Source: Gemmatimonas sp.
Lineage (GTDB): Bacteria; Gemmatimonadota; Gemmatimonadetes; Gemmatimonadales; Gemmatimonadaceae
Length of the DNA stretch: 64,000 nt
Direction: 5' to 3'
Assembly: GCA_965279375.1 (NCBI GenBank)
Contig: OZ257156.1
Span: forward strand, 5,152,001-5,216,000
This document shows positions 39,001 to 45,000 of this stretch, piece after piece; the first letter of the stretch is position 1; the number at the start of each line of letters is the position of its first letter. Made by a program: the position numbers.

Positions 39001-42000
39001 CTTCGTACCCACGAAATACCAGGGCGTGGTTGAACCACACGAGCTCATTCTCGATCTGCCGGACGTCGCCGGCACACCGGGCAGCGCGCTCTTCCTGCGC
39101 GGCTGGATCTACCCCACCGACGCCAGCATCAATGTCGCGCTCGGCCAGCAAACCGCGCTGAGCGTGTCGCCGCCATCGTTCGAAGTGCGTGACGCGCGCG
39201 GCCAGTGGAAGACCGTGGTGGCGAACCTCGGATTTCCGTCCGGAAAGGACAAGACGATGGTGATCGACCTGGCGGGCAAGTTCTCAACGGCGGATCGGCA
39301 TGTACGCATCCGTACGAACCTGCAGATTTACTGGGACCAGGCATTCGTCGCGCGCGATCTTCCGGGCAGCAACAGCAAAGTCGAAACGCTGGCGCCCCTG
39401 TCGGCCAACCTGCACGCGCGCGGCTACTCGCGCATGTATCGCAAAGGCGGCCGCTACGGCCCGTATTGGTTCGACTACGCCAACGTGGAGCAGAACGCGC
39501 CGTGGCGTCCGATCACTGGTGCCTTCACCCGCTTTGGGGATGTGTTGCCGCTGTTGGACAAGGCGGACGACATGTACATCATCATGGCGCCCGGCGATGA
39601 AACGACCATCGAGTTCGATGCGCGGTCAGCCGAGTCGCTACCGAAGGGCTGGCGCCGCGATTTCCTGCTCTACACCGACGGCTGGATCAAGGACTCCGAC
39701 CTCAACACGGCGTTCGGTACGACAGTCGAGCCGTTGCCGTACCACGGAATTGGCAGTTACCCGTACGGCCCCACAGACCGCTATCCCACCGACTCTCTGC
39801 GCACGCGCTATCGTCGGGACTACAACACGCGCATCGTCGGCGGTCGGACGCTCGCGCGATCCTCTAACACGGAGCAGCGATGACTCGCCAACTGACGACA
39901 GGCGCACCGATGCGTCGACCCACCGCGCTGCACTCGCTGCTGGCCGCGAGCCTCTGTCTTGCCACGAGCGTTGGTGCGCAGACCACATCCGCGACTGCCG
40001 GTGCAAAGCCCGCCGCGCTCGGCGACTTCCGCGCACCAATGGGCGTGCAGCTGTGGACGTTCCGAGAGCAGGCCAAGCCCGATCCGGCCGCGATGTTTCG
40101 GATGGCCCGCAAGATGGGCATCACGCACGTGGAGACGGCGGGACTCTACGACATGCCAGTGGCCAAGTTCGCCGCTGCGCTCAAGACGGCGGGGCTGCGG
40201 GCGACGTCGATGCACGTGGGATACGACGACCTCAAGAAGTCGCCTGATGTTGTCATCGCCAATGCCAAAGCGCTCGGAGCGCAGTACGTGGGCATCGCGT
40301 GGTATCCGCACGAAGGTGCGTTCACCGAGGCCGATGCGCGCAAGGCGATCGCCGACTTCAATGCGTTCGGTCGCACGCTCAAGAGCGCCGGGCTCAAGTT
40401 CTTCTACCACAACCACGGCTACGAGCCGGTCCCGTTCGGTAAGGGGACGCTCCTCGACCTGATCATCGACCAGACCGATCCGGCGCTCGTGTCATTCGAG
40501 ATGGACGTACTATGGACTTGGCTGCCGAACGTAGATCCTGTGGCACTGATCCGGCGTCATCCCGGACGTTTCCGCCTCATGCACATCAAGGATATGCGTC
40601 CCGGAATCGCGCGTGGCTCGCTCTCTGGCGGCCTGCCCGCAGAGCAGCAGGCCGTGATCGGACAGGGACAGGTGAACTGGCCTGAACTGCTCGCTGCGGC
40701 GCAGCGTGACGGCTTCGCCTTCTACTACCTCGAAGATGAGACCACCGATCCGGTGAAGAACGTCCCGCCGAGCATCTCGTATCTGACACAGCTCAAGTAC
40801 CCGTCCAACGCTGCCACCGGCGCGCGCAAGTAGGGTATTCTCTCCTGCGCTGCAGTCGAGCGTTAGACGAACACAGGTTCTGGGCCCAGACCACGCAGTC
40901 CAGGCAACGCCTCGATCAGCGCTTCACGAGATAGACCAAGCAACGCGTGGCGCTCGACGAGCACGTCGAGATCCACCGGGTACATGTTCTGCCGCGCAGC
41001 GTCCGCCAAACCGGCGACGTTGCGCGGTTCGAGCATCCGGGTCAGCCATTCGGTAAACTCTCGTCGCTCCGCTGCGCTGCCGATGTCGCCGCGACCGTTG
41101 GTGATGGCGCGCAGGCGGCGCAGTGACTCCTGTGGCAGCTCCACCAACACGCTGTCGTCTACGCCGAGAAATCCGCGCCAGGCCACGTCAGCCGTTGGCG
41201 CGATGCGCTGTTGCGTTTCGGCGTACGACACGGTGACGAAGTAGAGCATCGCCTGCGCAGCGAACAGGTCGAAATGCGCCATCGCTTCGTATGCGCCCGC
41301 CACGACGCGATCGATCTGCGTGGCCTCGCGATCGAGCGCGGAGGCGTAGCGAGCGAGCACCGGCGCCGATGGAAGGCGCGTACTGTTTGCGGCCGCTTCG
41401 AACTCGAGCGCGAGGCGTTCGATCGCACGCAGGCTCCACGCGATCCCCGACGAGAACAGCGGATCGACGAAGGCGTACGCATGCGGCAGCATCGCCCAGC
41501 GCGCCCCGGCCGCATGCGTGAGCCTATGTTGTTGCGCCGGTTGAAAGGCAATCGGTCGCAGTGGAACGGCATCGGCGTACGCGCTCGAGATGGTCGGATA
41601 TCGTTGCAGCAACGCCCGCCAGATCTCCTCGGCGCCGGCGTCGTCTCCGATTTGCAGCGACGCGAGTCCGTGCGGCGTGAGCGAGAAGCCCGCGCTCGTG
41701 ACGCCGTCGTCGAAGCGCAGGGCGTACATCCACCCCTCGTCGATGAGGTGGTGTACCGCAGCCCAATCGTCAGGGTACGGACCTGGTGGCAGCCCATTCA
41801 CCACCTCGGGCATGCGCTTCACGCCGGTGAAGTGACTGTACACCACCGCGGATTTCGTCTCGGTGTGCGTGACGGCAGATGGCAGCGAAAGCTGGCGCGC
41901 GAGAAAGCCGCCGGGTCCCGTCGCGTCGATGAGGAAGTTGGCGCGAAGCGAAAATTGCTCGCCGTGGCGACTTCCGCGCAGCTGAATGCCGTCGGCGTCG

Positions 42001-45000
42001 AAGTCCGCTCCGAGCACGTCTGCGCCATCGCGATAGTCCACCCCAGCGTCGATCGCCTGCCGCACGAAATGGTGATCGACATCAGCGCGCATCCAATGCG
42101 TGTCGGCCAGCGCGTCATCGGGGCTCGCTGCAACGAGCAGGCGCTCGGACGACATGCCGCGATTCTCGAACGCCTCGTGTGGATGATGCCGATAGAAGGT
42201 GAACCCGCGTTTGAGGCCGCGCCGCACCTCCGGCAGATGCGTAATCCAACGACCGTGCGTGGCGAGCTGGTAGCAGTCTTCGAGACCGTAGCGAACACCC
42301 AGCCGCTCCAGCGAAAGATTGCCGAGTGGTGTGGTGGACTCGCCGATGGCAAAGCGCGGGTGCGAGCCGCGTTCCAGCATCATCACGCGGTATCCGAGCT
42401 TGGCGAGAATGCGCGCGAGCAGCGAACCGGCGAAGCCGCTGCCGACGATCAGGACTTCACAGGCATCCGTCATACCGCAACGCTCGCTGCGTCGCAGCGG
42501 GCGCAGGCAACGGCGGGTTCCAGTATTCCTGACACGTTCTGCCGATGCAAACGTGCAACGCGATCAGCGCGACAGTGCTCACACGCGGGCAGTCGTTCGG
42601 CGTCCCACATGTCGGCGGTGATGACGGCTGGAGACACTCCCAGACATTGATCGAGCGCTCGCTCTAGGTCACGAAGCGTGGGCGGCGTGAAGTGTCCGAG
42701 CGCTTGCAAGCGCTCGATCTCGCCATTGCCACCGCGTACCGGAATGATGGATACCACGCTCGCGCCACGAGCGGCGGCGTACTCCACGGTGCGGACCGTC
42801 CACTCGATCGATGCGTCCGCCGGCACGTACGGAGCCCCCAGCAACACGAACACGCGCAGGTCGATGTCGTTCTCGCCAAGCAAGTCCGCCGCGCGCGCGA
42901 ACGCATCGAGATCGAGTCGCTTGTTGAGATGCGCGGTCGCTGTGGGTTCGATCGTCTCCAGTCCAACCGCGACTTCCAGGCGGCTGCCGATGCGACGCGC
43001 GAAGTCTATTGTGGCCGGACCAATGGTGTTGACGTGCGACTCTACGGTGAGCGCGCTGTACGCATTCGTGATCTCCACAATGCGCGGCACGTCATCCGGT
43101 GGCACCGCGCGTTTGTCGAAGAAATTGCTCGCATTGTAGAACTTGATGCGATCCGGTCGAGGGCCCGAGTGCTCACGCAGCGCCTGTTCCAACTGCCTGG
43201 GCAGCGCTCCGAGTGGTGTGGGCCCATCAATGGTGTACTGCCACAGATCGCAGAACGAACAGGTGAACGGACATTCCGCGCCCGACAAGAACACGGTCAG
43301 TGCGCGTTCGATCGTGCCATCGGGGCGTCGTTCGTCTTCCAGCGTGCTGCCCTGCGGCGTGAACGCGTCGATGGCGCGCTTGGCCGGCCGCAGGGAGCGA
43401 ATGCGTCGATCGGCGTCCGTCGCGCTCTCACGGAGCGAACTCACACGGAGCGTGCGTACAGTGTCTCGAAGTGACCGCGATAGCGCGCTTCGTTACGCGG
43501 GAACAGTTCGTCCACGCGGGACGCTGCCACCGATCCATGCTGAAAGCGTCGCTTCTCGAACACCGGCATCTCGATGCCAAGCACCGCGCGAATGCCACGC
43601 GAGACGACTTCGCCCTTGAGCGCGTACAACCGCTCGTGCGAACCCGAGGTCAGCTCCGCAAATGGCAACGCTTCGGCAACCGCGATCACCGACGGACGCG
43701 TGTAGGGGCTGAAGGACTCGAAGCCGTACTCCCGCGCGCAAGCGAAGGCGCGCACGCAGCCGCGGCTGTAGCCACCCGAGTAGGTGAGCGAATGCTTGAT
43801 CGACTCCACGCCCCACCCTTCCTGATAGAGCATGCGGTTGTTCACGACACTCCGGATGGTGAGCTCGCGGTTTTCCTCGATGGGATAGTCCTTGAGATTC
43901 TCGTCGCCACCGTCGCCATCCACCAGCAGCTTCCACTCCGGATAGCGCTCTCTGATGCCGGCAAGCAGCGCGAGATTCACGACCGCGCACTCGACATCCA
44001 GTGGCTTGTAGTCCTCGATGACTGCCACGGCGCGCAACGGATCGAGCGCACTCGACGCAACGTCGATGACTTCGCCAAGCATCTCGAGATTGGTGCGGCG
44101 CAGGAACTCACGCGCCTGCTTCGCGTCTTCGCCTTCCCCGTCGACCGACAGGGTGAACGCCTTGAGCCGCGCCGGTGATTGCCCTTCGTTGAGGAGCAGC
44201 GCGTTCAGACAGAGCAGGATCGCACCGCTGTCGATCCCACCGGAGAAGGGCACGCCGATCGGCGCGGACGGGTCCTGCACGGACAGCCAGCGACGCAGCG
44301 ACTCGTACAGCGCCTCGATGTAGCGGCGGCCGGCGCCATCGAGATCGGTGGAGACGCTGTTGCGCGATGGCTCGAAGAAGCGCCGATGCACCGGATTCGG
44401 ATCGGGACAGCCGATCAGCCGCAGCGTCGTCACGTGGTGCGCGGGCACCATGCGCGTGTAGCTCGGATGGAACTGGTCCAACCAGCCGTGTCGCGCCAGC
44501 TCTGCCGCAATCTCGTCGATTCGTTCGGCGACAATGAGTACCGGGCCCGCAACGGCCTTGGCCAGGAAGTAGCGCATGGGGCGGTCGAGACTGCGCGCGA
44601 GCAGCACGCGCTCGCCGTCCTGCGCCATCAAGGCGAACGACCCTTCGATGGCGAGCACCGCGTCGGCGTTGGTGTCGAGCAGCAGGCGGCAGGCGTCAGC
44701 GGAGCTCATCGACCACAGACGCTGCGACTCGTCGGCGATGAGATTGATGACGTTGGCGATGTAGAGTTGAGACATGGCCAAAAAGTATCGATCGCCATCG
44801 AGCGCGACTAGTCGAAATGCACGCTCGGCGTACCTTGACGAAGCGCACCATCGACCGTAGTGATGCCGAGGTACTGGTGCGGTACCGCCGTGTCCGTCGG
44901 CACACGGTGCGTGCGTCCTTCCTCCGTCCCTCCCATGAACATCGTGTTGCACATCGTGTTCGAGACGATTGCACGCCTTTGCTCCCCGCGACGTACCGCG

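Follow-up and report, generated by a model that had tools for sequence, protein, structure and literature searches.

Three intact genes on the minus strand of the window, the 64,000-nucleotide stretch of Gemmatimonas sp. contig OZ257156.1 analysed here, form a 3.9-kb unit (44775-40863). The first encodes a 444-aa predicted ATP-dependent ligase of the AsnB/beta-lactam-synthetase fold (43441..44775), the second a 324-aa radical SAM protein related to RaSEA, QueL and MnmL (42470..43444) and the third a 536-aa flavoprotein resembling the flavin-dependent halogenases of the PltM/CtcP type (40863..42473). Both junctions are 4-bp stop/start overlaps, GTGA and ATGA. The initial annotation described three overlapping genes conserved as a unit, and the intact reading frames, these overlaps and joint occurrence across the sampled genomes bear this out. 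Promoter and terminator scans gave signals at the level of shuffled sequence, and an Rfam scan of seven loci matched nothing but two unrelated tRNAs. TAG recoding, an idea raised by stops flagged within six matches, was rejected: the tblastn matches are full-length and the sole star is the gene's own stop.

The cassette sits within an accessory SusC/SusD-UnbV block of about 18 kb (36299..54340). Two congeners lack the block, and in them the aminotransferase gene (34842-36203) runs straight to, or near, the hydrolase gene (54441-56402); no GC anomaly was seen across it. On the plus strand, a TPR, FG-GAP and UnbV/ASPIC protein (36299..39883) is a recurring but not obligatory neighbour, a xylose-isomerase-like TIM barrel gene (39910..40833) is convergent with the cassette and does not recur, and an FG-GAP and UnbV/ASPIC protein (44935..48357), divergent from the cassette, does recur. 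A SusD and SusC outer-membrane uptake pair (48394..53352, minus strand) also lies inside the block.

In samples from four phyla, 734 genomes in total, the ligase and radical SAM genes occur in the same 46 genomes and neither is ever found alone. Four of these carriers served as sample centres because they carry the genes, and kin are not independent. Carriers make up 16 of 201 Gemmatimonadota genomes and 6 of 151, 10 of 131 and 14 of 251 in the other three samples, a patchy presence of 4-8%. The taxonomic range, left open initially, thus extends to at least four phyla. A flavoprotein gene is present in 42 of the 46 carriers, even where the genes lie far apart (halogenase counts leave out the cassette-free genomes of two phyla). 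The gene order reported previously also held on other samples. At the 16 own-phylum loci the ligase is always upstream of the radical SAM gene and the flavoprotein is downstream in 15, the sixteenth ending at a contig end; at 80 metagenome loci anchored on the ligase, the radical SAM gene adjoins in 74 of 74 with room and the flavoprotein in 51 of 55. Insertions between cassette genes at some loci are transposases or unrelated genes.

Co-occurrence survives unlinking. In genome G294 the three genes lie on three separate contigs, in G277 and G260 the halogenase is 237-307 kb from the others on the same chromosome, and at two loci (L075 and L092) no ligase lies beside the radical SAM gene, yet one is found elsewhere in those genomes. 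Pairwise identities of the three proteins correlate (Spearman 0.86-0.90, 76 loci), and their gene trees are partly incongruent, with 4-7 of 32-37 supported splits in conflict. Among 7999 candidates scored, 2822 homologs were found at E<=1e-5; no relatives were found in viral contigs, no radical SAM homolog in phages and no ligase homolog in plasmids. We conclude that the ligase and radical SAM pair is the core of the cassette. The flavoprotein belongs to the unit as first described but is dispensable in a few lineages.

The ligase model matches AsnB (Z 24.4) and beta-lactam synthetase (Z 23.8), the next fold class reaching Z<=10.3. It shares with beta-lactam synthetase, CarA and AsnB/ASNS the two-domain fold (Z 20.7-24.5) and the intact adenylation motifs of an AsnB-fold adenylating ligase: SGGxDS, the GxGxDE motif (DGDGGDE) and a C-terminal Lys, K408, whose role we take to be that known from AsnB-fold enzymes. 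The pyrophosphate-binding SGGIDS (residues 178-183; 44227..44244, minus strand) is invariant in 98 of 98 aligned rows, these rows, like the 107 and 83 cited below for the other two proteins, being related rather than independent sequences. Also invariant is C123, within GCPDP. In contrast to the known enzymes, the protein begins MSQLY and lacks the first ~38 Ntn residues, including the nucleophile Cys1, and with them a complete glutaminase domain; structural alignment starts only at target residue 39-41 (AsnB residue 39). The original description, an AsnB-like ATP pyrophosphatase without a glutaminase Pfam match, needs correcting in that the domain is not simply missing: a truncated Ntn-like domain remains. 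The substrate-site motif differs as well. ASNS ETYDITTVR aligns with EDYKPLDVE, and the position of the ASNS Arg, which presumably binds aspartate, holds Arg in none of 98 rows and E, Q or D in 97 of them.

Automatic names and a Pfam Asn_synthase match would make this protein an ordinary asparagine synthetase with chance neighbours. We find this scarcely credible: Cys1 is absent, the NCBIfam AsnB model (TIGR01536) gives 39.7 bits against a cut-off of 267, and the identical ligase and radical SAM genome sets, kept even when the genes are unlinked, contradict it. A complex prediction for the ligase with the radical SAM protein scored 0.01 against a mark of 0.32, which is evidence for neither side.

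The radical SAM protein has the TIM-barrel fold and a CxxxCxxC cluster motif (C58, C62 and C65; 43250..43273, minus strand) that is invariant in 107 of 107 rows; the initial statement that this motif and SGGxDS are intact therefore stands. The NCBIfam values were likewise reproduced, all below cut-off (TIGR01210 7e-17, TIGR01536 3.1e-10, QhpG 2.4e-19 and CmlS 4.1e-19). TIGR01210 (RaSEA), whose controls pass in three genomes, matches 70 of 70 radical SAM members with the best E-value of any family (best member E 5.7e-33), followed by MnmL/YhcC (TIGR01212) with 35 of 70. Alignment with a TIGR01210-near bacterial clade was full-length (HHalign 99.8%, 303 columns, 21% identity), and PDB sequence searches gave nothing useful. 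The top fold match is queuine lyase (QueL, PDB 6P78; Z 17.3, rmsd 3.3, 218 residues aligned, 16% identity), with a narrow lead of about 1.2-1.3 Z units over the radical SAM folds that follow; BioB, MqnE, HydE, ThiH and NosL lie near, at Z 14-16. Compared with QueL and the TIGR01212 clade, the cassette protein has an extra N-terminal helix and a C-terminal CxxC...CxxC (C288, C291, C314 and C317), and it is accompanied by neither MnmEG nor genes for queuine salvage. Higher TIGR01210 scores are reached in other bacterial clades (177 and 107.5 bits), and databases already auto-label bacterial RaSEA-like proteins. Thus the novelty lies in the three-enzyme unit, which does provide the new context claimed at first, and not in a bacterial RaSEA-like gene per se.

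These relatives suggest a reaction type. RaSEA strips lysine from preQ0-Lys (PMC11298593), MnmL/YhcC converts cmnm5U to nm5U and queuine lyase yields preQ1 (PMC7694415); in each case the nitrogen stays on the base. The likeness to MnmL/YhcC and QueL lies in taking an N-substituent off a modified base by radical chemistry. The likeness to the ArcS-RaSEA archaeosine synthase, as that source outlines it, is the logic of a ligase followed by a radical lyase with an amino acid as nitrogen donor. The cassette differs from it in its ligase, which is AsnB-fold and ATP-dependent rather than a TGT-fold lysine transferase, in the added halogenase and in the frequent failure to find QueC.

With TIGR01210 as nearest family, the cassette might be taken to make archaeosine (G+15) in bacteria or to stand in for QueC/QueF in the queuosine pathway. 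Ten carriers have a QueE-like gene without detected QueC, and QueF was not found in the five of these tested. The radical SAM protein, however, reaches only 61.6 bits on TIGR01210 against a cut-off of 212.15, and preQ0 supply through QueC is not seen in every carrier: QueC was found in 29 of 47 and not in 18, several of these being fragmented assemblies but one (G668) a single contig. No que gene was found in 274 fetched loci (L017-L290), and the cassette has no evident reductase. Alongside the block that bears the cassette, the host genome already has QueD, QueE, QueC, QueA, a QueF-like gene and two Tgt genes of the G34 type; replacement of QueF in this genome was considered and rejected, since tblastn with E. 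coli QueF gave a match (E 8e-8) that a motif scan had not. The 18 carriers without a QueC hit speak against an archaeosine synthase, and we regard either of these roles as very improbable.

The two nearest characterised relatives of the radical enzyme, RaSEA and QueL, act on the C7 arm of 7-deazaguanine. It is conceivable, if doubtful, that the acid used is 7-carboxy-7-deazaguanine (CDG), to which the ligase would join lysine, the radical enzyme trimming the product to an amide and a PltM/PrnC-type enzyme halogenating the pyrrole. Carriers that have retained queD-queE but not QueC or QueF would be accounted for as well, on counts that come from carriers only. Against CDG, 8 of 47 carriers matched neither QueC nor QueE, by a QueE model so insensitive that it missed this genome's own QueE, and queG lies close to two queD-queE pairs, which points to ordinary queuosine use. 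If true, a natural halogenated deazaguanine base would serve as signal, cofactor or nucleic-acid base in four phyla.

The flavoprotein was initially called halogenase/QhpG-like. The first half of that name holds, but its profile matches PltM (E 1.2e-74) and CtcP (E 2.2e-70) far better than QhpG (69.5 bits against a cut-off of 240), favouring PltM/CtcP over other solved flavoproteins by >33 orders of magnitude; the alignment (profile 2-472 of 517) takes in the C-terminal region of the PltM type. Residue K88 (42210..42212, minus strand), aligned with catalytic Lys87 of PltM, and D124 are kept in 83 of 83 rows, just as PltM, CtcP and PrnC have a catalytic Lys with an adjacent acidic residue (PMC6424973, PMC12400496 and PMC10770391). 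The protein has the motifs of variant A flavin-dependent halogenases (PMC8407142), namely GxGxxG (G11/G13 in 82 of 83 rows), the catalytic Lys and Fx.Px.Sx.G (S341 and G343 in 83 of 83, F335 in 77, P338 in 80). It departs from PltM, CtcP and PrnC at the position of PltM Glu49, which binds phenol and is L or I here, in a degenerate WxWxIP (first W 83/83; second W 23/83, Y 59/83; P 14/83), and in that no flavin reductase or PKS/NRPS cluster recurs beside the cassette. By sequence, then, the flavoprotein is a predicted PltM/CtcP-type free-substrate halogenase and not QhpG.

Weak QhpG, GoxB and LodB model matches of the flavoprotein nonetheless bear on protein or peptide maturation, in which isopeptide ligation, radical cleavage and aromatic side-chain modification might build a cofactor, possibly for the neighbouring UnbV/ASPIC proteins. 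This idea is modelled on QhpG, LodB and GoxB, which act for quinoproteins. Of 29 phylum-sample genomes, 9 have UnbV-like genes at the cassette and 4 have UnbU-like genes there; the background for UnbV, taken from this genome only, is 1.6% of 20-kb windows. An FG-GAP gene and the radical SAM gene overlap in genome G366. We judge such a role decidedly unlikely, as 20 of the 29 loci have no UnbV-like gene, UnbV hits (7-10 per genome) lie away from the cassette in 5 of 10 genomes mapped, and the profile favours PltM/CtcP so strongly. No recurring precursor peptide, leader peptidase or RRE gene was found among called genes of at least 45 aa near the cassette, and no QhpC, LodA or GoxA target gene among 40 neighbours scanned. 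PADLOC 2.0 anti-phage defence models assigned 0 families to the three cassette proteins.

What the analysis shows is that the three genes occur together, that their products have these folds and that catalytic residues are conserved. The three enzymes probably make one small halogenated, nitrogen-bearing molecule; substrate, product and step order are our proposal. The scheme that we tentatively prefer, at somewhat less than an even chance and largely by analogy, is a cytoplasmic pathway with an amino acid as nitrogen donor. The ligase would adenylate a small metabolite with an aromatic or heteroaromatic ring, in particular an aromatic acid, at its carboxylate or at a ring carbonyl and, having no glutaminase, would couple it to a bound amine. 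The donor would most likely be lysine or another basic amino acid, as analogy and the acidic motif suggest. The radical SAM enzyme would then take hydrogen from the carbon next to the nitrogen and break the C-N bond, so that the ring keeps an amide or amine, and the halogenase would act on the electron-rich ring, an O2-dependent step lost in a few lineages. The ammosamide pathway (PMC12715798) offers a parallel, in that amino acids are appended to an aromatic core and trimmed oxidatively to an amine, a flavin halogenase acts on the free product and an AsnB-like amidase is a candidate. It differs in building on a peptide scaffold with PEARLs, aminoacyl-tRNA and a flavin oxidase, which do not recur beside the cassette.

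Several observations count against this scheme. No substrate-defining gene recurs beside the cassette, the fold lead of queuine lyase is small at 16% identity, and the flavoprotein has the altered WxWxIP and Glu49 positions. An ordinary amidotransferase would also be a cheaper route to a primary amide, and five full-length AsnB-family matches exist in the host genome, so that the role of the radical enzyme may be another, for instance C-C cleavage or rearrangement. A small-molecule pathway that in this way keeps part of the amino acid in its product, and/or whose flavoprotein hydroxylates rather than halogenates, is somewhat unlikely. The closeness of the other radical SAM folds would suit it, as would the degenerate WxWxIP, a motif thought to block monooxygenation, and the point that a simple primary amide calls for no radical chemistry; the sequence-level neighbours of the radical enzyme, however, form a C-N-cleaving clade, the catalytic Lys, its acidic partner and Fx.Px.Sx.G vary little or not at all, and some true halogenases have no WxWxIP (PMC8407142).

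It also counts against the preferred scheme that every near relative of the radical enzyme characterised so far works on nucleobases or tRNA rather than free aromatic acids. RaSEA and MnmL/YhcC work on tRNA, and in a rival reading the ligase might attach an amino acid to a tRNA or rRNA base for the radical enzyme to trim and the flavoprotein to hydroxylate or halogenate. The single, scattered genes of some genomes, an arrangement common for housekeeping modification genes, and the unusual conservation of the ligase (mean identity 63% across phyla) would fit. We consider RNA modification unlikely, however, given an AsnB fold (Z 24) rather than a TilS/TtuA/MnmA type (Z<=10.2), median pI values of 5.7 (ligase) and 6.0 (radical enzyme), the enclosed, small-molecule pockets of PltM/CtcP, the patchy presence and the accessory location in the host; no RNA-binding domain was found in the cassette proteins.

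We found no description of the three-enzyme unit in the literature, supplementary tables lying outside the search, so that a neighbourhood table could already list it. The earlier claim of a probably new pathway therefore stands for the conserved unit, which is probably undescribed, though not for the mere presence of a RaSEA-like gene in bacteria. In databases, thousands of proteins bear the names 'archaeosine synthase beta-subunit' or 'asparagine synthase (glutamine-hydrolysing)' in error or without support. The proposed pathway would extend the RaSEA/QueL/MnmL radical C-N lyases beyond tRNA, paired with a new class of ATP-dependent ligase, and would suggest that a halogenated metabolite is widespread among bacteria of soil and water. 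With its near-perfect joint profile in four poorly studied phyla, the unit represents a complete, directly testable orphan pathway.

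The three genes of the cassette lie on the minus strand as intact open reading frames and encode a ligase of the AsnB fold (44775-43441, 444 aa), a radical SAM protein (43444-42470, 324 aa) and a halogenase-like flavoprotein (42473-40863, 536 aa), with a four-base stop/start overlap at each junction. The NCBIfam scores given for the three proteins in the initial annotation were obtained again, every one under its cut-off, and the proteins are not members of RaSEA, AsnB or QhpG. Of 7999 candidates scored against the radical SAM protein, 2822 are relatives at E<=1e-5; at E<=1e-30 it matches 283 clusters at 50% identity.

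Each cassette gene was searched against the same genome samples of four phyla (734 genomes). Both core genes, ligase and radical SAM, were found in 46 of the 734 genomes, 42 of which carry the flavoprotein as well; four of these 46 carriers are sample centres picked because they carry the genes, and related genomes are not independent. Once weak matches to other clades were excluded, no genome of the 734 had a single core gene. In the organism's own phylum (201 genomes), the radical SAM gene and the ligase occur in an identical set of 16, with the flavoprotein adjacent in 15. The phylum of genome G201 (151 genomes) gave 11 radical SAM matches, of which 6 are strong (E<1e-120) while the other 5 (E>=3.9e-26) are weak; no genome but the 6 with a strong match has the ligase, and the flavoprotein matches, present in 36 genomes, are strong only in those 6. 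For the phylum of G203 (131 genomes), 10 of 11 radical SAM matches (E<=3.1e-53) coincide with the 10 ligase genomes, and the flavoprotein is found in 8 of these 10 (in G203 its gene is in two pieces) and by itself in G388; counting the unpublished genome G378 raises each figure by one. In the phylum of G202 (251 genomes), the 14 ligase genomes are the 14 strong radical SAM genomes, with one further weak match (G613), and a search of these 14 carriers found the flavoprotein in 13. Genomes in which the genes are unlinked are especially telling: G294 has the three genes on three separate contigs, and in G260 and G277 the halogenase lies 237-307 kb from the core genes. From pair to pair of loci, the identities of the three proteins rise and fall together (correlation 0.86-0.90, 76 loci), and a minority of supported splits in their gene trees are in conflict.

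Record titles among the best 80 of 588 confirmed genome loci name Gemmatimonadota, Acidobacteriota, a planctomycete, Bacteroidia and Deltaproteobacteria; Verrucomicrobiota is the name on one cluster member. Within these best 80 of 588, the ligase lies immediately upstream in 70 and upstream past an insert in 4; another 4 have no room for it and 2 lack it, and both genomes lacking an adjoining ligase have it elsewhere. The flavoprotein, in the same best 80 of 588, lies immediately downstream in 76, while 1 has no room for it and 3 lack it. Among 80 metagenome loci anchored on the ligase, the radical SAM gene is next in 74/74 with room for it and the flavoprotein is adjacent in 51/55 with room. 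The lineages of loci L093, L289, L174 and L284 have the ligase and radical SAM gene only, and the genes after the pair at L093 and L289 are URO-D-like, creatininase-like and glucosamine-6-phosphate deaminase-like. At L095:10909-12434 the halogenase gene reads as two ORFs, through either a true break or an assembly error.

The predicted model of the radical SAM protein (pLDDT 96.4) is a radical SAM barrel whose top fold match, queuine lyase (Z 17.3, rmsd 3.3, 218 aligned), leads the next by ~1.2-1.3 Z. TIGR01210 matched all 70 aligned members and TIGR01212 (MnmL/YtqA) 35 of the 70. The known enzymes have a common outcome, in which a carbon skeleton is lost and nitrogen stays: RaSEA, partnered by the lysine transferase ArcS, is described as converting preQ0-Lys to archaeosine (PMC11298593), YhcC/MnmL as converting cmnm5s2U to nm5s2U (bioRxiv 10.64898/2026.05.18.725915; 10.1101/2023.12.21.572861), and queuine lyase as yielding preQ1 (PMC7694415). 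Bacterial clades closer to RaSEA exist (177 and 107.5 bits), one of them with 639 relatives, and with this last clade the cassette family shares 21% identity over 303 aligned columns. Other bacterial RaSEA-like proteins were each seen at a single locus, adjoining an amidinotransferase-fold gene (L109:1031-2287), an ATP-grasp gene (L175:8738-9928) or, where the RaSEA-like portion forms the C-terminus of a 695-aa protein, an AAA ATPase (L161:4184-6268).

The ligase model (pLDDT 86.8) matches ASNS (Z 24.5), AsnB (24.4), beta-lactam synthetase (23.8), CarA (20.7) and TsnB9 (19.3). The remaining adenylating folds, tRNA enzymes included, score Z <=10.3. Modification of RNA by the cassette is unlikely. 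A review from 2026 on RNA modification in bacteria (PMC13602947) has, in the portion of its text searched, no word beginning 'halogen'. The structural alignment of the ligase begins at target residue 31-41 and its first residues are MSQLY; the Cys1 segment is thus missing. SGGxDS, D286/D291/E292 and K408 show no variation across 98 related family sequences, and C123 is likewise invariant. The counterpart of the ASNS motif ETYDITTVR, whose Arg we take to be aspartate-binding, is EDYKPLDVE; because an acid stands in place of that Arg, the motif suggests a basic co-substrate. A plain AsnB is extremely improbable. In the ESM Atlas, two clusters of tailed-phage proteins are possible look-alikes of the ligase (43444-44775), at an alignment-free feature score of 0.96.

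Profile searches placed the flavoprotein nearest to PltM (E 1.2e-74) and CtcP (2.2e-70); no other solved protein scored better than 1.3e-36. The PltM pocket is described as common to CtcP (PMC12400496), and PltM as having been used for modelling the pyrrole halogenase PrnC (PMC10770391). K88 aligns with PltM K87, which is reported as needed for activity (PMC6424973), and K88 and D124 are each present in 83/83 aligned sequences. Of the halogenase motifs taken from PMC8407142, Fx.Px.Sx.G is retained and WxWxIP is degenerate. The position of PltM Glu49 holds L or I, and therefore the substrate differs from that of PltM. Action on a small molecule by other radical or flavin chemistry is possible, at a low probability. 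In G388 (locus L176:7374-18000), a PltM-type halogenase relative (E 7.7e-71 to the family profile) lies beside DUF1702, desaturase, ACP-reductase and iterative PKS genes. DUF1702, UnbV and UnbU are presumably parts of the enediyne core cassette.

No widely recurring biosynthetic, transport or precursor gene was found near the cassette in the loci compared. UnbV/ASPIC genes occur in 36 of the best 80 of 588 loci, largely in a single lineage, and in 9/29 phylum-sample loci, the background in this genome being 1.6% of 20-kb windows; 4/29 have UnbU-like genes. No UnbV match lies near the cassette in 5 of 10 genomes mapped, the first five of which were chosen after such neighbours had been noticed. 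The association with UnbV is real but loose, and maturation of a protein or cofactor linked to UnbV is quite unlikely. The block holding the cassette (~36.3-54.3 kb) includes two UnbV genes and SusC/SusD; in five congeners compared over 28-48 kb the match ends at ~36.2 kb, and in two of the five the flanking genes are joined directly or via ~2.7 kb of other DNA. Beside the cassette in two phyla (L095:12916-20726, L177, L179, L199) stands a recurring operon made up of TPR-FG-GAP-ASPIC, CRTAC1/UnbV and RnfD-like (UnbU) genes. An AhpD-like peroxidase gene has an in-frame TGA within C-V-F-TGA-T at 9/9 loci with both halves called (L023:13188-13769, L020, L024, L026, L029, L038, L041, L042, L054); with the TGA taken as selenocysteine, TIGR01926 matched at 70.9 and 117.5 bits. 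At L096 and L199, Cys-type pairs lie close to the cassette.

Among 47 carriers, 29 gave a QueC match and 32 a QueE-like gene, the QueE model being insensitive; 10 have QueE without QueC and 8 match neither. QueF was sought in five carriers with QueE and without QueC and found in none, and queD-queE pairs were seen in several carriers of this kind. Such pairs, from genomes that gave no QueC match, lie at L291, L292, L294, L295, L297 and L298, with queG close by in L292 and L295; none of the three queD-queE genomes examined for QueF (G668, G656, G360) gave a match. These pairs may point to a new route from 7-carboxy-7-deazaguanine (CDG) to preQ1. The queuosine set is complete in the genome studied here, which also has two Tgt genes of the G34 type, both full and above the G34 cut-off, one beside queA and the other among M16-peptidase-like and oxidoreductase genes (paralogues at L311:6682-7920 and L312:4750-5931). 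Because of these que and Tgt findings, the cassette was rejected as an archaeosine synthase or a QueC/QueF substitute here; a role in archaeosine or queuosine is very improbable.

Co-occurrence, folds and residues are demonstrated for the cassette; every reaction is one that we infer. Our best reading, held tentatively, is that the ligase would couple the amine of an amino acid to a small aromatic acid or ring carbonyl in an ATP-dependent step, the radical SAM enzyme would remove the donor's carbons by a radical step and the flavoprotein would halogenate the ring. The unit would operate in the manner of ArcS-RaSEA, and the ammosamide pathway is described as a precedent for an amino acid as nitrogen donor to an aromatic core (PMC12715798). 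No description of the three-gene unit was found in the literature searched, which comprised main texts without supplements and few subscription papers. CDG may be a candidate substrate, the que counts referring to carriers only. The product would then be a halogenated deazaguanine which, if true, would be categorically new.
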